Shown here piece after piece: positions 37,627 to 56,510 of a DNA stretch of 64,000 nt. Position numbers and translations under genes: made by a program. The first letter of the stretch is position 1. The number at the start of each line of letters is the position of its first letter. Under the pieces are notes generated by a model. The model was not told where the DNA came from. It saw only the letters and a program-made list of their open reading frames with translations, and ran no database searches. This DNA is from Escherichia coli. Lineage in GTDB: Bacteria; Pseudomonadota; Gammaproteobacteria; Enterobacterales; Enterobacteriaceae. The stretch is from assembly GCF_022846255.1 (NCBI RefSeq), contig NZ_AP025682.1; one strand, written 5' to 3'.

Positions 37627-38301
37627 ATGATGAAGTTACTTCACTTATTTATGGATGAAATCACTATGGATCCTTTGCACGCCGTTTACCTGACCGTAGG
37701 ATTGTTCGTGATTACTTTTTTTAATCCGGGAGCCAATCTCTTTGTGGTAGTACAAACCAGCCTGGCTTCCGGTCGACGCGCAGGGGTGTTGACCGGGCTG
37801 GGCGTGGCGCTGGGCGATGCATTTTATTCCGGGTTGGGTTTGTTTGGTCTTGCAACGCTAATTACGCAGTGTGAGGAGATTTTTTCGCTTATCAGAATCG
37901 TCGGCGGTGCTTATCTTTTATGGTTTGCGTGGTGTAGTAGCATGCGCCGCCACTCAACACCGCAAATGAGCACACTACAACAACCGATTAGCGCCCCCTG
38001 GTATGTCTTTTTCCGCCGTGGATTAATTACCGATCTCTCTAACCCGCAAACCGTTTTATTTTTTATCAGTATTTTCTCAGTAACATTACATGCCGAAACA
38101 CCAACATGGGCACGATTAATGGCCTGGGCGGGGATTGTGCTCGCATCAATTATCTGGCGAGTCTTTCTTAGTCAGGCGTTTTCTTTGCCCGCAGTGCGTC
38201 GTGCTTATGGGCGTATGCAACGCGTTGCCAGTTGGGTTATTGGTGCAATTATTGGTGTATTCGCGCTACGCCTGATTTACGAAGGGGTGACGCAGCGGTG
38301 A
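37627..38301 (+). CDS. yahN: LysE/RhtB-family amino acid exporter
   Basis: about 223 aa membrane protein. Confidence 0.85.
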   Translation: MMKLLHLFMDEITMDPLHAVYLTVGLFVITFFNPGANLFVVVQTSLASGRRAGVLTGLGVALGDAFYSGLGLFGLATLITQCEEIFSLIRIVGGAYLLWFAWCSSMRRHSTPQMSTLQQPISAPWYVFFRRGLITDLSNPQTVLFFISIFSVTLHAETPTWARLMAWAGIVLASIIWRVFLSQAFSLPAVRRAYGRMQRVASWVIGAIIGVFALRLIYEGVTQR

Positions 38302-48306: not shown

Positions 48307-49725
48307 TCAGACGCCGTAACGTTCGCACCAGCCAAAAATGGCTTTCTCGAAGCAGGCGAAGGGTGGATGCACAATGCCCGCGCCAATCATGCCGACGCCC
48401 GCATCTTTATGGGCGATGGCGGTGTTGATCACTGGCAGAATGCCGCTGCTACCCACGCGGGTGATGTCGATTGCCGACGGAACGCCCATAAAACCGAGCA
48501 GCGGAATGGTGACGTTGGGGTTTTCGCCAAGGGTGATTTCACGCATCTGACGGGAGAAATCGATAGCCTCTTCCACCGTGCCACCCACCAGCGCGACGAT
48601 CGCGGGCGCGGTCGCCATCGCAAATCCGCCGATACCGTAGGTTTCGGTGATGGCGCTGTCGCCAATATCCAGCCCTGAATCTTCCGGCTTATAACCGGCA
48701 AACATCGGGCCGATGACCTGCTGCGCCGGGCCGGTAAACCACTGCCCCGGCAGGCCGCTGACCCGCAGGCCGAACTCGACGCCGTTACGCGCCATGGTGG
48801 TCACCACGGTGCTGTATTCGATGCCGTGCGCCGCATCCATCGCCGCTTTACACATCGCCATCCACGTCGGGCCGGAGAAGTAGTCGCTGCTGGCGACAAA
48901 CTCAAACACTTCGCGCTGTTGCTCGACGGAATAACCTGCCTGAATAATCCCCGGCGTCAGCGCCTGAATCAGCAGCGTCGTCCCGGCGTTATTGCGGTTA
49001 TGGCATTCATCGCCCATATGCAGCGCCTGCGCCAGCATTAAGCGCAGATCGATTTCGCCGATAATTTTCATCGCGTCGCGCAGCATGGGTCCCTGCACAT
49101 CGCGCATCCAGTTGAGGCGGTCGATCACGCTCTGGTCGTTAGCGCCCATACGCAAAATCTTCGCCATCTGCTCGCTCATGTTGGTATAAGCGACGTTGCC
49201 ATAGGTTTTGTTTTTCACGATGTGCATAAACATCGAGGCCGAGGTGACGCCCGCCATCGATCCCACACAGTCGTGCTCGTGGCACGGCGAGAAGGTGATC
49301 TCCCCGGAAGCCGCCAGCTCAGCCGCCTCGTCGAGATCTTTCGCCAGTCCTTCAAACACCAGCGCTCCGGTGACCGCGCCTTTCATCGCGCCGCACATTT
49401 TTTCCCAGGTGACCGGCGGCCCGGCGTGAAGAATGGTTTTCGGCGTCATGCCCGGCACCACGTTAATCGCCTGATCAAAACCAATCAGCACCGGATGCGA
49501 CTGGATAATGCGCTCCAGCGCCTGCTGGTTAGCGGCGGTGATTTTGTCCGCCAGCGGCGAATCGGCAATGTTGTCCAGTGCCTGCACCACCTGCATATTG
49601 CCCTGCCCCGGCGGCGTCCAGTCGAGTTGGGTCACTTCTACATGCTGCTTTTTCAGATCATCGCTAAACATGGCGATACCGACGTTAATAACGTTCAACG
49701 GTTGGCTAAACAGTGACTGGCTCAT
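48307..49725 (-). CDS. yahG: DUF1116 protein (YlbE/AllG paralogue)
   Basis: 472 aa. Confidence 0.88.
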   Translation of the reverse strand: MSQSLFSQPLNVINVGIAMFSDDLKKQHVEVTQLDWTPPGQGNMQVVQALDNIADSPLADKITAANQQALERIIQSHPVLIGFDQAINVVPGMTPKTILHAGPPVTWEKMCGAMKGAVTGALVFEGLAKDLDEAAELAASGEITFSPCHEHDCVGSMAGVTSASMFMHIVKNKTYGNVAYTNMSEQMAKILRMGANDQSVIDRLNWMRDVQGPMLRDAMKIIGEIDLRLMLAQALHMGDECHNRNNAGTTLLIQALTPGIIQAGYSVEQQREVFEFVASSDYFSGPTWMAMCKAAMDAAHGIEYSTVVTTMARNGVEFGLRVSGLPGQWFTGPAQQVIGPMFAGYKPEDSGLDIGDSAITETYGIGGFAMATAPAIVALVGGTVEEAIDFSRQMREITLGENPNVTIPLLGFMGVPSAIDITRVGSSGILPVINTAIAHKDAGVGMIGAGIVHPPFACFEKAIFGWCERYGV

Positions 49726-51272
49726 CAGGCTTCCTCCCCTTTGCAGATAAATTCACGCGCCAGCAATCCGGTATTGGTGCTGCTGCTCGCCAGAATCACT
49801 CCGGCATCAAGCAGCATCTGGCTTTGTTGTTCTAATGATGGCGTATCGAGATCGGTGCCCAGCACATAGGCGAGAATGATCAACTCGCGTCCTTCGGCAG
49901 CGGCGATCGCTTTCGCTTCTTTGATCGCCTCGATGGTGGAACCGACCGGATCTTCATGCGATCCAAATCCGAGCACAAAATCCATCACGATCACCGCCAC
50001 TTCTGGATCGCGCGCTTCTTCGATCAAGCGGCTGATACGGTTGGTCGGGTCAATCATTGGATGCGGCTTGCCGTTGGTGAAGTCATCATCGCCAAAATCG
50101 AGGAAGGTGTGTTTGATGCTGCGGTTGATATCTTGCAGGCGGAATTCAGGATCGGGCTGGATATTGCTGTAGACATCGCCATGTTTTTCCATCACCGCGA
50201 ACAGGGTTTCGTCACACAGCGTACCGCCGCAGAACAGACCACGAATGTATTTCTGCTGCGGTTGCAGACGCGCACGCACATCCGCAATCAACGGCTGGTT
50301 AAGCGTATGCAGGTCGAGATGTTCTTGTTTCACGCCGGAGAGCATCACCGCTTTCAATGCCGCCTCTTTGCTGCCGCGAGCAAACTGTAGCCCCTGCTCA
50401 TCCACTGGCGTTTCGCCACGACCGAGGAAGCAGGCCACCACTGGCTTGCGGCAGGCGCGTGCGCGTTCCAGCACTTTGCGGGCCACCGCAGGCGCAGGCG
50501 GTTTGGAGATAAGCACAATGATTTCAGTTTGCGGATCGTTTTCCAGCATCCCGATGGCATCGAGCATCATCAGGCCACCGATTTTCTCGCTCAGGTCGCG
50601 CCCGCCGGTGCCGATCAGTTGTGAAACGCCGCCACCAAATTCATGGATACGGACGCTCAATTCCTGGCTGCCGGTGCCAGATGCGCCAACAATACCGATG
50701 TTGCCGCGACGCACGGCGTTACCAAAGCAGAGCGCCGCGCCGTTGATAATCGCCGTGCCGCAGTCTGGCCCCATCATCAGCAGCCCTTTTTCATGGGCCA
50801 ACTGTTTGAGCGCCAGTTCATCTTCAACTGAGACATTATCGGAAAACAGCATCACGTTGAGGTCATTTTGCAGCGCCTGACGCGCTTCGCGAGCGGCAAA
50901 CAGACCGTTGACCGAAATCACTGCCAGGTTACTTTCCGGGATATGCTTTTTGGCGCTGGCAATAGTGCCGTAACGCGCCTCGTGCGAGCCGCTTTGCGCT
51001 TTGGTGTTGAACAGTTCTTCAATCTCCGCCAGCAACTGCTCGTTGTCCACACCCGATTTACCATTGATGACAATCATCAGGTCGCCGTTTTTCGCCTGCT
51101 CCAGCTCCGGCGTCAGCAGTCCTAAATTCTTCAACACGCCTTTGTTCATTTCGGTCGCCATCGCCACAAATGCCTGCTCGACGCCGTCGAGTTTATTTGC
51201 ACGCGTGGAGATAGACATCAGCGAGACAGAATCAAAATAGGTATTCGGTTTAATGACTATTTTAACTGACAT
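49725..51272 (-). CDS. yahF: FdrA-like CoA-binding protein (FdrA/AllF paralogue)
   Basis: 515 aa; succinyl-CoA-synthetase-alpha-like Gly-rich motifs. Confidence 0.88.
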   Translation of the reverse strand: MSVKIVIKPNTYFDSVSLMSISTRANKLDGVEQAFVAMATEMNKGVLKNLGLLTPELEQAKNGDLMIVINGKSGVDNEQLLAEIEELFNTKAQSGSHEARYGTIASAKKHIPESNLAVISVNGLFAAREARQALQNDLNVMLFSDNVSVEDELALKQLAHEKGLLMMGPDCGTAIINGAALCFGNAVRRGNIGIVGASGTGSQELSVRIHEFGGGVSQLIGTGGRDLSEKIGGLMMLDAIGMLENDPQTEIIVLISKPPAPAVARKVLERARACRKPVVACFLGRGETPVDEQGLQFARGSKEAALKAVMLSGVKQEHLDLHTLNQPLIADVRARLQPQQKYIRGLFCGGTLCDETLFAVMEKHGDVYSNIQPDPEFRLQDINRSIKHTFLDFGDDDFTNGKPHPMIDPTNRISRLIEEARDPEVAVIVMDFVLGFGSHEDPVGSTIEAIKEAKAIAAAEGRELIILAYVLGTDLDTPSLEQQSQMLLDAGVILASSSTNTGLLAREFICKGEEA

Positions 51273-52125
51273 AATTCCCTCCGTAGGTTTGACTCAGCGC
51301 ACAACCATCGGCCATGCCATACAGCATGTCGCAGCCGGAACTGGAGCCAATATGTTTAATTTTTTCTATTGCCTGAGTTGCGTTCCCAGGGATGTCATAA
51401 ATAATGTTGTGAATAAAACGATGAATATTTTCCCGGCAGCGTTGTTGTAATGCGGCTTCCAGCGTGATGGCACTTAATAACGTGGTATTATTTCTGCCGC
51501 GTTGCAAACCGAGATAAAATTCCTCTTTGTATTTTTCCGCCGGATGTCCGGAAATAAATAAAATAAGTACCAGTCCGGTCAGATAATCATCGGCTGATGG
51601 CGTAAGGCCAATCCCTAAGCCCATCATACTGGCGACTGCTGAGGCGATATTTTGTTTATCGTTTACGGCCTGAATAACTGCCCGTCGTTTAATATGTAGT
51701 TCTTTATTTAACGCCTGATAAAACGGATTATCGCCGCGATAATTAAACAGGGTTTCATTTTCCCCCAGGTGCTGATGAATAATGTCGTGCCACTGTTGCC
51801 AGGCGATAAGGTGAAAATTCACAGCGGTCATTTGCAAGGTTGGGGACAGCCAACGCCGACAACGACTCATCTCTATATGAAGATGTTGACCAACCGTAAT
51901 GCCTTGATCGTCAAACTGAACCTTATCACCATGCCGGAACAGACCATTAAAGTGAGTGAGTGCCAACCGACAACTGTTTGGCGCATTGTCGTACTCTTCA
52001 CAAAGCAGCGTTAGCAACTGCTGGCGAGCCGGGAGTGCGATATTTACCGCTCTGGCAAAGACCTGTTCAACCTGTCCTTGCCCCCGCTGCGCCAGAAAAT
52101 CAGCATCCGCAGTTAGCGCCCACAC
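51262..52125 (-). CDS. yahE: DUF2877 protein (YlbF/AllH paralogue)
   Basis: 287 aa; non-ATG start as given by the ORF track; overlaps yahF by 11 nt. Confidence 0.8.
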   Translation of the reverse strand: MWALTADADFLAQRGQGQVEQVFARAVNIALPARQQLLTLLCEEYDNAPNSCRLALTHFNGLFRHGDKVQFDDQGITVGQHLHIEMSRCRRWLSPTLQMTAVNFHLIAWQQWHDIIHQHLGENETLFNYRGDNPFYQALNKELHIKRRAVIQAVNDKQNIASAVASMMGLGIGLTPSADDYLTGLVLILFISGHPAEKYKEEFYLGLQRGRNNTTLLSAITLEAALQQRCRENIHRFIHNIIYDIPGNATQAIEKIKHIGSSSGCDMLYGMADGCALSQTYGGNYVS

Positions 52126-52164: not shown

Positions 52165-52770
52165 TTATGCACCTGCGGCGATCAGCAACTGCGCAATCTC
52201 TTCAAAGCCCCGTTCCCGCGCCAGTTCCAGCGGCGTTTTGCCATATTTATCGGTCAGATGCGGGCTGGCACCGTGTTCCAGCAATAACTGGACAATCGCC
52301 TGCTGTTTAATCCCGCCATCGTTAAGCACAATCGCTTCCAGCAACGGTGTCCAGCCAACATGGTTAGTCTGGTTAACGTTAATCTCCGTATTTGCCAAAA
52401 GCTCTTTTACAATACTTAAATGGCCTTTTTCACAGGCAGGCGTCAGGCCGACACCGCCAAAACGGGTTACGCAATTAATATCGGGTTTAGCCGGTAAAAT
52501 AATTCGTAGTAGCGTTAAATCATCGTTCAGACAGCTAATTAAAAAAGGATTTAAACAGGTATGATCTTGTTTATTAATATTCGCTCCGGCGTCAATTAAT
52601 GCCTGAACGCAAGCATATTGCTGATATAAACTTGCCAGCGTAATTGCCGTTTTCCCCTGACGATCGCAGGTATTAATATCGACACCCAGCGCAAGGCAGA
52701 TTTTTACTTTATCGATATCCCCCTGTTGCGCAGCCAATAAATAGTCTGCAGGTAGATTTTTTATAGTCAT
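52165..52770 (-). CDS. yahD: ankyrin-repeat protein
   Basis: 201 aa with ankyrin motifs (GKTPLELA, LLEHGA...). Confidence 0.88.
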   Translation of the reverse strand: MTIKNLPADYLLAAQQGDIDKVKICLALGVDINTCDRQGKTAITLASLYQQYACVQALIDAGANINKQDHTCLNPFLISCLNDDLTLLRIILPAKPDINCVTRFGGVGLTPACEKGHLSIVKELLANTEINVNQTNHVGWTPLLEAIVLNDGGIKQQAIVQLLLEHGASPHLTDKYGKTPLELARERGFEEIAQLLIAAGA

Positions 52771-53027
52771 TCACATTCACCTGGTTTTTGTGGCTGTTTT
52801 CGATGAATTGAGAATAGCAACGATAATCTGATAAAAGAACCCGCTTAAATTTAATTCGCCGTATTTCGCCTTTTTGTTGAATGATGTTCAACAATCTTTT
52901 CGCAGTGTGCGGTAGTGCAATATTTGTTTCTTTGACCCGATACCCTTTCACTCAATCAGGTTTTATTTCTCTATAGTCTGTACATGTAAGAGTAGCTTTC
53001 GTCCATGTCTAACCAGAGGGGAACAAG

Positions 53028-53525
53028 ATGAACGGACTCACGGCAACGGGTGTCACCGTCGGTATTTGTGCAGGGCTTTGGCAGTTAGTGTCTTCACATG
53101 TCGGGCTCTCTCAGGGATGGGAATTATTAGGAACCATTGGCTTCGTCGCCTTTTGCAGTTTTTATGCCGCAGGCGGCGGTAAATCGGGGTTTATCAGAAG
53201 TCTGGCGGTTAATTATTTCGGGATGGTGTGGGCCTTTTTCGCCGCGCTGGCTGCCGGCTGGCTGGCCTCTGTAAGTGGGATTTCCGGGTTCTGGGCGAGC
53301 GTGATTATGACTGTACCCTTCTCGGCGGTGGTGGTCTGGCAAGGACGTTTCGGTTTACTGTCTTTTATTCCCGGAGGCTTTCTCGGCATGACGCTATTTT
53401 TTGCCAGCGGGATGAACTGGACGGTGACATTACTGGGTTTTCTGGCGGGTAACTGCGTGGGGATAATTTCAGAATATGGCGGACAAAAATTAAGCGAAGC
53501 GACGACTAAACGCGACGGGTATTAA
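53028..53525 (+). CDS. yahC: inner membrane protein YahC
   Basis: 165 aa hydrophobic protein. Confidence 0.85.
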   Translation: MNGLTATGVTVGICAGLWQLVSSHVGLSQGWELLGTIGFVAFCSFYAAGGGKSGFIRSLAVNYFGMVWAFFAALAAGWLASVSGISGFWASVIMTVPFSAVVVWQGRFGLLSFIPGGFLGMTLFFASGMNWTVTLLGFLAGNCVGIISEYGGQKLSEATTKRDGY

Positions 53526-53616
53526 AAGTTATTCAAAAATGATTATCTATCTTTAACCGATACCTCTACAGTCATAGCTGGAGAAATTCATATTCGATAA
53601 TGGCGGGAATGGTTTA

Positions 53617-54549
53617 ATGAACTCAATTTTTACCGAAGAGAATCTGTTGGCATTTACTACCGCTGCGCGTTTTGGCAGTTTCAGTAAAGCCGCAGAAGAG
53701 TTGGGTTTAACCACTTCCGCCATTAGCTACACCATCAAGCGAATGGAAACAGGGCTGGATGTGGTGCTGTTCACTCGCAGTACCCGAAGCATTGAGTTAA
53801 CGGAGTCCGGGCGTTATTTTTTCCGCAAAGCTACCGACCTGCTGAATGATTTTCACGCCATCAAACGCAGCATCGATACTATTTCGCAGGGTATAGAAGC
53901 ACGGGTGCGCATTTGTATTAACCAACTGCTTTATACGCCCAAACACACCGCACGCTTATTACAGGTACTGAAAAAGCAGTTTCCAACCTGCCAGATTACC
54001 GTGACGACCGAAGTGTATAACGGCGTCTGGGATGCGATTATTAATAATCAGGCGAATATTGCTATCGGCGCGCCCGACACACTGTTGGACGGCGGCGGCA
54101 TTGATTACACGGAGATTGGCGCAATTCGCTGGGCTTTTGCTATCGCCCCGGATCACCCATTAGCCTTTGTGCCGGAACCCATCGCCGAAAGCCAACTGCG
54201 TCTCTATCCTAATATCATGGTGGAGGACACCGCGCATACGATTAATAAAAAAGTGGGCTGGTTGCTGCATGGGCAGGAGTCGATTCTGGTGCCAGATTTC
54301 AACACCAAATGTCAGTGCCAGATTTTAGGTGAAGGAATTGGTTTTTTGCCGGATTACATGGTCCGTGAGGCGATGGCGCAATCCCTGCTGGTTACCCGAC
54401 AAATCCATAATCCGCGCCAGGATTCACGCATGTTACTCGCAACTCAGCATTCTGCTACGGGTCAGGTGACGCAGTGGATTAAAAAACAATTTTCGCCAAA
54501 TGGCATATTAACGGGGATCTATCAGGATTTACTGCATCGGGAGAATTAA
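53617..54549 (+). CDS. yahB: LysR-family transcriptional regulator
   Basis: 310 aa; N-terminal HTH LAFTTAARFGSFSKAAEELGLTTSAISYTIKRME. Confidence 0.9.
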   Translation: MNSIFTEENLLAFTTAARFGSFSKAAEELGLTTSAISYTIKRMETGLDVVLFTRSTRSIELTESGRYFFRKATDLLNDFHAIKRSIDTISQGIEARVRICINQLLYTPKHTARLLQVLKKQFPTCQITVTTEVYNGVWDAIINNQANIAIGAPDTLLDGGGIDYTEIGAIRWAFAIAPDHPLAFVPEPIAESQLRLYPNIMVEDTAHTINKKVGWLLHGQESILVPDFNTKCQCQILGEGIGFLPDYMVREAMAQSLLVTRQIHNPRQDSRMLLATQHSATGQVTQWIKKQFSPNGILTGIYQDLLHREN

Positions 54550-54590: not shown

Positions 54591-55679
54591 TCAACCACCT
54601 GCTTTCATTACCCATTCAGAGATAAATTTATTACCCGGTACTGGCGGAGAGTACAAATAGCCCTGCAAAAAGTGAACGCCTTTGCCGATCATTAAATCCG
54701 CCTGCTCCTGGGTTTCTACCCCTTCCGCCACGATACTCAGACCAGGCTTACGCGCCAGTTCGACAATATTGTCCACAATATGACCGGATATTTCGTCCAC
54801 GCTCGCCATTTGCACAAATGACTTATCGATCTTAATAAAATCGACCGGGAACGCCTGCAAGTAACGATAGGTCGCATAACCCGTACCAAAGTCATCCAGC
54901 GCAAAGGTAATGTTGTGCTGATGAAGGCTGTCAAATATCGCTCTGGCTTCTGGCGTTACCGGAATAGGGTTACGTTCCGTTAGCTCGAGAACCAGTTTGA
55001 TTTTATCGTTACCTAATTTCTTAACCAGGTTCAGACACTCTTTTTCAAATCCCGCAGCCAAAAAACAACCCGCCGAGACGTTGATGCCAATATGGAAATT
55101 GTCCGGCAGCAAATGTTTTACCGGCATCAGAATATCCGCAGTCTGTTTCATCAACTGGCGAGTCATTATGACGATAAGACCAGATGACTCCGCCAGAGGA
55201 ATAAACTGATCCGGTGGGATAATTCCCGTTTGTGGATGTTCCCAGCGGACAAGCACCTCACAGCCCGTCAGTACCCCAGTCTGCGCGCAGAAAACCGGTT
55301 GGATCCACGGTTTAAATTCATGGTTTTCCAACGCCAGACTGATGGCTTCCGGCGTGACGATATGGTGATAGTGATTATCATTAATATATTTGTGACTATT
55401 ATTACCCGTGGCGGATATGATCTCCGGATTGTACTGAAAGAAAATATCCCGCCAGAAAGTAATATCGCTCTGAATCCCCAGTTTCTCAAAGAGCTGTTTC
55501 TTTTGATGTGAAATGGTCTTTGCACTACGATTTCTGTACTGTGATATTTCTGTTACAGACATTCCCTGCATCAGCAGCTTGAGTAGCAGTCGTTCTTTCT
55601 CGGATACGCTACCAGGCAATGACAAATGAACCGTTGTACCGAACTCTTGCAGAAAAACACGAAAATCACATGAATTCAT
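54591..55679 (-). CDS. pdeL: c-di-GMP phosphodiesterase with LuxR-type HTH and EAL domain
   Basis: 362 aa from ATG 55679 (MNSCDFRVFLQEFG...); ELTE and DDFGTGY EAL motifs. Confidence 0.92.
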   Translation of the reverse strand: MNSCDFRVFLQEFGTTVHLSLPGSVSEKERLLLKLLMQGMSVTEISQYRNRSAKTISHQKKQLFEKLGIQSDITFWRDIFFQYNPEIISATGNNSHKYINDNHYHHIVTPEAISLALENHEFKPWIQPVFCAQTGVLTGCEVLVRWEHPQTGIIPPDQFIPLAESSGLIVIMTRQLMKQTADILMPVKHLLPDNFHIGINVSAGCFLAAGFEKECLNLVKKLGNDKIKLVLELTERNPIPVTPEARAIFDSLHQHNITFALDDFGTGYATYRYLQAFPVDFIKIDKSFVQMASVDEISGHIVDNIVELARKPGLSIVAEGVETQEQADLMIGKGVHFLQGYLYSPPVPGNKFISEWVMKAGG

Positions 55680-56510
55680 GAACACACCTTTTATCTTTTA
55701 TCGCTGTTCAGTATGAGTGATTACCTGTGGATTCCTGAGCACACATAAGGGGTAACCATAAACATTAGCGATGCCATACGTATAACATCCCACATCACTA
55801 TCAAGAAGATTATCTTTACCTCTGATGCTCGCTCAGAAACAGTTACGCTAAATACCTTAAAAAGGTAATCACAAGTCAAAACTCAGGAGATAATCACGCA
55901 AGAATGCAATATTAAAATTCAGATACTCATTATTGGTAATAAAGAAGTAGTTGGACTATTTCGATATTTATAATTTCCCACTACGTATTGACGCCCATTC
56001 ATGAGTAAAGGCGCATTATATGAATTTAACAATCCAGATCAACTGAAAATACCTCAACCTCATAAACACATAGCGTCAACATTCAATGACATAATGAGTA
56101 AAGATGTTGGTTATGCATACACGTCATTACTCTATGCCTATCCCTTAACAACCTGCCTCTTAAGACTGAATCCATTCAGCAATAGATGACCAACATTATA
56201 ACAATGACAATAAAAACAATATTTAAAACAATCAATAAAATATCAGACACAGACAATTAAACCTTAAACAACAAATGGTTACATTGATTTTGGTTGATTT
56301 GCGCTACGCGTTCCCCATGAATAAAGCGTCATTTCAAATTAGCACCAATATTTACATTAATTAAGACTAAGCTTATTGAACATTCACAACAGTCCAAACG
56401 TAGGTTTTGGGCTTCAATAGTTCTTTTCTTTTTTATTATCTGTTGCCTGGCAATCATCAATCTATACTAAGGGCTTAACTGTACAGATATAACGTATCAA
56501 GAGGTAAGAG

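Follow-up and report, generated by a model that had tools for sequence, protein, structure and literature searches.

It was found that the intergenic region upstream of yahD in Escherichia coli contains a conserved 25-bp box built around a perfect palindrome. This palindrome is probably the high-affinity operator of yahD, most likely bound by the LysR-type regulator YahB, in a two-site activator model. The proposed control of the yahD-J genes by YahB is well supported by comparison. YahB is favoured as the binding protein because of the co-occurrence of the box and its gene, the LysR geometry of the site, the presence of a related box (box 2) near yahB, the conservation of the YahB recognition helix in parallel with the box and the gene linkage of YahB homologues. 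The first-pass annotation of this DNA had put YahB forward as a plausible local regulator of the yahD-J operon. Synteny, co-occurrence and LysR geometry speak for this proposal, but the locus has no YahB peak in a ChIP-exo experiment, which speaks against it.

The locus was analyzed in a 64-kb stretch of DNA (hereafter, the window), in which its orientation is opposite to that in K-12. Gene names were assigned on the basis of 98% identity to the annotated K-12 locus and of Pfam. The region 52771-53027 corresponds exactly to the 257-bp gap between the ATG of yahD (minus strand, 52770) and the ATG of yahC (53028). The neighbours of the box are genes for an ankyrin protein, AllF/G/H-like proteins, a carbamate kinase and an amidohydrolase. 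Pfam assigns YahE to the AllH family and YahG to the AllG family (oxamate carbamoyltransferase subunits), and YahF contains CoA-ligase and CoA-binding domains that are also present in AllF-type proteins; the products of yahI and yahJ are a carbamate kinase and an amidohydrolase, respectively. Within the allantoin regulon, the fdrA-ylbE-ylbF-ybcF part is paralogous to the yah cluster. Full-text literature searches on yahB and yahC-J returned no study of the yahD promoter or of a YahB motif, and, apart from lists, the literature searched mentions YahB only in the ChIP-exo set of Gao et al. (2021). The coordinates of the features are given in Table 1.

Table 1. Coordinates of genes, conserved blocks and proposed control elements at the yah locus, numbered as in the window.
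Feature	Position	Strand	Basis or remark
yahG, yahF, yahE	48307-52125		
yahE	51262-52125	-	Pfam AllH
yahD, ankyrin repeats, first gene of the yahD-J cluster	52165-52770	-	ORF list, K-12 identity, Pfam
Block D, GTTGCTATTCTCA, predicted yahD core promoter	52822-52810	-	near-invariant in all genera
Weak -35, TTCTTT	52836-52831	-	
Block C, consensus GATGAATnAAtTTTAAGCGGATTCTTTT (yahD sense), proposed ABS abutting the -35	52860-52833	-	alignment, 78 loci
Block B, full conserved 25-bp box, consensus GATTGTTGAA-N5-TTCAACAATC, proposed YahB RBS	52872-52896	.	alignment conservation; about -80 from the predicted yahD start
Perfect inverted repeat TTGTTGAA-TGATG-TTCAACAA, centre 52884	52874-52894	.	arms 52874-52881 and 52887-52894
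Block A, TTGCACnnnnCGCACA (yahD sense)	52920-52906	.	alignment conservation
yahC, DUF1097 membrane protein, lineage-restricted	53028-53525	+	Pfam
Box 2, GGGTATTAAAAGTTATTCAAAAATG (TTAAA-N5-TTCAA), possible autoregulatory site	53517-53541	+	12.5 bits on the box matrix
yahB, LysR-type regulator	53617-54549	+	Pfam HTH_1 and LysR_substrate
pdeL/yahA	54591-55685	-	

A 17-bp palindrome resembling a LysR-type T-N11-A box had been described in the first-pass annotation. The palindrome (GTTGAATGATGTTCAAC) is present exactly at 52876-52892, and the resemblance was confirmed, with T52878-N11-A52890 located inside perfect 8-bp arms. Its length, however, had been underestimated: the arms TTGTTGAA and TTCAACAA, separated by 5 nt, form a longer inverted repeat, and the functional box extends over 21-25 bp. 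Comparison with first-order Markov shuffles showed that the 64-kb window contains two perfect inverted repeats with 8-bp arms and an N5 spacer (0.67 expected) and 32 with spacers of 0-12 nt (13.6 expected). For the 257-bp region, the expected numbers are about 0.003 (N5) and about 0.05 (any spacer of 0-12 nt). One such repeat anywhere in the window is unremarkable by count, and the decisive support for the palindrome is its conservation across genera rather than the repeat count. Two other exact TGAA-N5-TTCA sequences are located in the window, at 37631 and 53843, one of them within yahB. Neither scores on the 25-bp matrix described below, and the number of such sequences in the window (3 vs. 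1.3 expected) is within chance.

A search for YahB using one genome per species yielded 80 loci, and the box alignment comprised the 78 loci with a YahB orthologue. A symmetrised weight matrix was built from 68 unique 25-mers (consensus GATTGTTGAAnnnnnTTCAACAATC, about 30 bits). The window and K-12 boxes scored 26.6 and 32.7 bits, respectively, and one box per locus was found at 25-37 bits in the 78 loci, from Escherichia to Providencia, Serratia and Aeromonas. In nearly all of them it reads TTGAA-N5-TTCAA or a one-mismatch variant, with the flanks ATTR...YAAT. Scanning of 816 kb at a threshold of at least 18 bits gave 79 matches upstream of yahD and one elsewhere; as a measure of specificity this count is partly circular, since the matrix was built from the sites scored, while the off-target rate is not circular. 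The single other match belongs to a YahB homologue with 71% identity that adjoins an ankyrin and amidohydrolase gene pair, and is located in the corresponding intergenic region there. In 355 kb of shuffled sequence, no box match of at least 18 bits was found. Conservation of the palindrome in other strains was also checked, and it was present in at least 20 genera, always together with yahB.

The spacer takes 38 different sequences among the 69 unique sites and the arms are conserved. The N5 spacing is invariant (69/69), with the T-N11-A register also kept. A-4 and T+4 are invariant, G-5 is found in 68/69 sites, position -7 is T in 67/69 and position +7 is A in 69/69; the outer ATT/AAT of the box is conserved as well. 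Within Escherichia, the spacers TGATG (window), TAATA (K-12) and TATCA (E. albertii) occur with intact arms in all three, and the sole arm change is a G→T substitution of the outer left-arm base in E. whittamii. With the TAATA spacer, the K-12 site becomes a perfect 10-1-10 palindrome of 21 bp. The window and K-12 differ at five positions in the 257 bp, two of which are within the 5-bp spacer (52882-52886). The yahD/yahC intergenic region was found in 5,084 of 5,426 complete E. coli genomes; as for the spacer alleles, the window-type 45-mer was present in 3,253 genomes and the K-12 type in 1,543. Judging by this pattern, the box behaves as a two-half-site protein target rather than a hairpin, because the arms are kept, the spacer is free to vary, the changes in the arms are one-sided and uncompensated, and no terminator was called.

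An alignment of the 200 bp upstream of yahD from the 78 loci, evaluated by per-column information content, revealed four conserved blocks designated A-D, with the 25-bp box as block B. Block D was interpreted as an extended -10 comprising TG (52819-52818), a C at position -13 and the hexamer TATTCT (52816-52811), and this extended -10 element, TGCTATTCT, is near-invariant across the loci. Measured from the box centre, the -12 base of the TGCTATTCT hexamer is located at 68 bp in 70 loci and at 69 bp in 6 (76/77), while the yahD ATG may be anywhere from 105 to 190 bp away from the box. The position of the box thus follows the promoter element instead of the coding sequence. Within block C there is a second, degenerate dyad centred at 52852, with the consensus TGAA-N5-TTTA and the sequence CGAA-N5-TTTA in E. 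coli. The centre of this dyad, which is the second-best match to TTGAA-N5-TTCAA, lies 32 bp nearer yahD than the palindrome centre, and the dyad is located directly before the poor -35.

The yahD transcript is predicted to start at A 52804, which is at about 335246 in K-12 NC_000913.3, and to have a 34-nt leader, which puts the two dyads at -80 and -48. Textbook positions of LysR sites are about -65 for the RBS and about -35 for the ABS. The predicted sites would thus lie about 15 bp further upstream than the textbook ones, and this was counted against the YahB model. A consensus scan of 52600-53750 found no sigma-70 promoter and no terminator-like site. Since no sigma-70 match was obtained, it is conservation on which the -10 assignment rests; the absence of such a match fits an activator-dependent promoter. 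The Cappable-seq supplement, which is possibly incomplete and whose coordinates may differ, contains no start near the predicted position under either version of the genome, and this was regarded as a weak negative result.

Block A is conserved as strongly as the palindrome and is located 29 bp past its centre, on the yahC/yahB side. The assignment of this block as a sigma-54 or NtrC site was rejected on inspection by eye, because a GG at -24 is lacking and its half-sites do not form an inverted pair. No convincing match to a sigma-70 -10 was found in block A either.

A comparison of gene order indicated that yahB is divergent from yahD in all 77 loci with a readable neighbour. The yahC gene is located between them only in Escherichia, Kluyvera, Raoultella, Klebsiella and Pseudocitrobacter, and the yahB-yahD intergenic region without yahC is 180-760 bp long. 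Thus, the divergent yahD/yahC region named in the first-pass annotation is a true feature of the window, but the conserved pair is yahB/yahD, most genera being without yahC. This gene looks like an insertion, or later arrival, that separates the yahD control region from the yahB-proximal promoter. The yahC-yahB unit named in the same annotation was seen as a gene order, but it gives an incomplete picture, as yahB has a promoter-proximal box of its own.

This second box (box 2) overlaps the yahC stop codon, and its centre is 88 bp upstream of the yahB ATG in the window. Its relatives with the sequence TTAAA-N5-TTCAAAA, scoring 10-16 bits, were found upstream of yahB in 60 of the 78 loci, with or without yahC. 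In Enterobacter, box 2 is TGTTAAAAT, an extended -10 located 34 bp from the yahB ATG. Box 2 may be an operator that overlaps the yahB core promoter, as is usual for LysR autorepression. Given box 2 at yahB, the latter need not depend on the yahC promoter. A published ChIP-exo peak of YfeC labelled 'yahC' (signal/noise 55.9; MG1655 334131-334162, apparently in version-2 coordinates) corresponds to approximately 53112-53143 of the window, that is, to the 5' part of the yahC coding sequence (codons ~29-39), off the palindrome.

The genera spanned by YahB include Escherichia, Citrobacter, Kluyvera, Raoultella, Enterobacter, Leclercia, Buttiauxella, Serratia, Providencia and Aeromonas. Its identity is 79-99% from Escherichia to Providencia and Serratia, which is high for an uncharacterised LysR regulator; it is about 80% to Providencia and 84% to Aeromonas cavernicola. 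The neighbouring proteins are less conserved than YahB (66-80% for YahD and 36-64% for YahE). The 84% identity of the Aeromonas YahB suggests horizontal transfer of the yah cassette. Conservation of the box is paralleled by that of the YahB recognition helix, TTSA(I/V)SY(T/A)IKR(M/I)E.

More distant YahB homologues (53-71% identity) adjoin AllF/G/H-like, carbamate kinase, amidohydrolase or ankyrin genes. At the Neisseria locus, which encodes a 59%-identity homologue, weak matches of the ATTAGTGA type (9.8-11.3 bits) were found in AT-rich intergenic DNA adjoining such genes and are suggestive only. Three further loci of distant homologues, L083, L084 and L086, had no box within the locus DNA examined; at L083 and L084, yahB ends a co-directional operon, the promoter of which is beyond that DNA. 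A PDB sequence search with YahB returned generic LysR matches alone (E ~1e-13 to 1e-15), which were uninformative on specificity.

These characteristics allow us to propose the following mechanism. A YahB tetramer would bind two sites, namely the 25-bp dyad about 80 bp upstream of the predicted start and the degenerate dyad 32 bp closer to it. The yahD core promoter combines a strong extended -10 with no usable -35 and should therefore depend on an activator. A co-inducer would shift YahB at the proximal site, and yahD-yahEFG-yahI-yahJ would be switched on; through the related box at the yahB-proximal promoter, YahB would also control its own gene. A carbamoyl or ureido compound is the probable inducer, because the cluster encodes the AllH/AllG proteins YahE and YahG, YahF with its AllF-type domains, the carbamate kinase YahI and the amidohydrolase YahJ.

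Even without inducer, a LysR-type regulator is usually found at its primary site. In the only experimental data set found for YahB, a ChIP-exo experiment with YahB-8myc in glucose M9, three peaks were reported (ygjD, nlpI and yhcC; signal/noise 1.29-1.99), none of them at the yah locus (PMC8464067). Since occupation of the primary site would have been usual, this result counts against the model. It was nevertheless graded as a weak negative because the peaks are near noise, yahB expression is low (mean count 76) and the tag is C-terminal. The coordinates of this data set apparently refer to the older MG1655 version, as the positions of rpsU, lpp and yfeC fit version 2.

In naming YahB as the reader of TTGAA-N5-TTCAA, the first-pass annotation had left MetR out of consideration. 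The MetR consensus TGAAnnTnnTTCA, extended to ATGAA-N5-TTCAT (PMC5002191), shares the TGAA-N5-TTCA core, and the box could be bound by MetR or by another trans-encoded LysR regulator with the same core, which would tie yah to homocysteine/methionine status. The palindromes of the window and K-12 both fit the 13-bp MetR core perfectly, and TGAATGATGTTCA fits TGAAnnTnnTTCA on the other strand with T as the centre base. MetR is found in all the genera concerned, and conservation of the box alone is compatible with its binding. However, the yahD box has T/A at ±7 (67/69 and 69/69) where MetR has A/T and departs from the extended consensus, the conserved outer ATT/AAT lies outside the MetR consensus and the metE-metR control region scores below 0 bits on the box matrix. 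In addition, the box travels with yahB, including in Aeromonas and at the locus of the 71%-identity homologue, MetR and YahB share 25% identity and differ in their recognition helices, and the neighbouring genes are not methionine, glycine or NO-stress genes. Recognition by MetR is considered quite unlikely. An operator of some other, non-LysR transcription factor, with YahB acting elsewhere or inactive on yahD, would agree with the ChIP-exo result, and conserved block A (52906-52920) indicates that more than one factor may act here. Nevertheless, the T-N11-A dyad, the second dyad 32 bp off beside the -35 and the divergent LysR gene make up a LysR pattern, the spacings of FNR (N4) and CRP (N6) are, by their established consensus, unlike N5, and the box shows no consistent linkage to any other regulator gene. 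We regard such a factor as unlikely.

The palindrome could also act as a nucleic-acid hairpin, i.e., a terminator, an attenuator or an RNA stability element, as it can form a stem of 8-9 bp (about -7 kcal/mol) on either strand and is followed by a short T-rich run on the plus strand. Against this, the stem is AT-rich, no terminator-like site was called and the palindrome is located upstream of both predicted promoters. Moreover, the 69 unique sites show 35 one-sided arm changes at -5/+5 and 25 at -3/+3, with no compensatory double changes at ±11-±9 and ±7-±3 and only 4 at ±8 and 9 at ±12. One-sided changes in the arms are the opposite of a selected stem, and a hairpin function is very improbable. 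By chance, 64 kb should contain one or two such repeats, and the palindrome might be a functionless feature of AT-rich intergenic DNA. Its presence in about 20 genera, where the arm positions are invariant, the spacers vary and the distance to the promoter is fixed, leaves this explanation with practically no weight; conservation together with the fixed spacing effectively refutes it. An operator read by YahB remains the preferred interpretation.

The arrangement upstream of yahD was compared with known systems. MetR at metE/metR and GcvA at gcvB/gcvA act on two-site LysR promoters with an RBS and an ABS (PMC5002191). As at yahD, the metE and gcvB promoters combine a conserved distal site with a degenerate proximal one by the -35, and the regulator gene is divergent. 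The yahD box shares with two-site LysR promoters a T-N11-A dyad with a 15-bp core, and its half-site TGAA/TTCA is identical to that of MetR. Unlike the MetR and GcvA sites, it is 25 bp long, has a conserved outer ATTG/CAAT and carries T/A instead of A/T at ±7. The sites predicted at yahD (-80/-48) also differ from those of the MetR and GcvA systems (about -63 and -35-adjacent), as does the long yah intergenic region with its separate box at the promoter of the regulator.

FNR and CRP recognize TTGAT-N4-ATCAA and TGTGA-N6-TCACA, respectively. Like the yahD box, these are AT-rich dyads starting with TTGA or TGTGA and located upstream of catabolic promoters. Compared with these generally known consensus sequences, the yahD box differs in its inner bases and in the N5 spacing, invariant in 69 sites.

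From its sequence features, the box is a previously undescribed example, in terms of the literature searched, of an ordinary LysR-type operator. The mechanism is that of textbook LysR regulation; the conceptual surprise is small and the value is practical. The yahB and yahC-J genes are still 'y' genes in the best-studied bacterium, and the operator gives a usable experimental handle on them. Together with the predicted activator-dependent promoter and the link to AllF/G/H and carbamate kinase, it turns a vague guess into concrete experiments. The picture of the operon is also corrected, the conserved unit being yahB/yahD, with yahC coming later. It can be tentatively suggested, at slightly less than even chances, that yahB, together with the 25-bp operator and yahD-J, makes up a self-contained, horizontally mobile cassette of switch and pathway, used to ferment a carbamoyl or ureido compound. 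If so, the cassette would parallel the oxalurate branch of allantoin degradation (AllFGH and AllK), and few LysR regulators of Enterobacterales would be as constrained in sequence as YahB. The operator would then serve as a ready reporter for finding the inducer and, through it, the substrate on which this long-standing y-ome cluster acts.

In the allantoin regulon of E. coli, the allD operon is activated by AllS. This protein was the closest characterised paralogue of YahB found (38% identity over 290 residues), and the recognition helices of the two proteins are similar (TTATISYRIKLLE vs. TTSAISYTIKRME). An operator common to both was considered and rejected, since the match at allD-fdrA reached only 9.5 bits and allS-allA also had no convincing match. 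The paralogy includes structural genes of the all cluster: fdrA/ylbE/ylbF, i.e., AllF/G/H, correspond to YahF/G/E, and ybcF corresponds to YahI, while the ankyrin protein YahD has no counterpart there. By analogy, the paralogy with fdrA-ylbE-ylbF-ybcF suggests a pathway of carbamoyl transfer and carbamate kinase for the yah cluster. In some databases, YahB orthologues are labelled 'AllS'.
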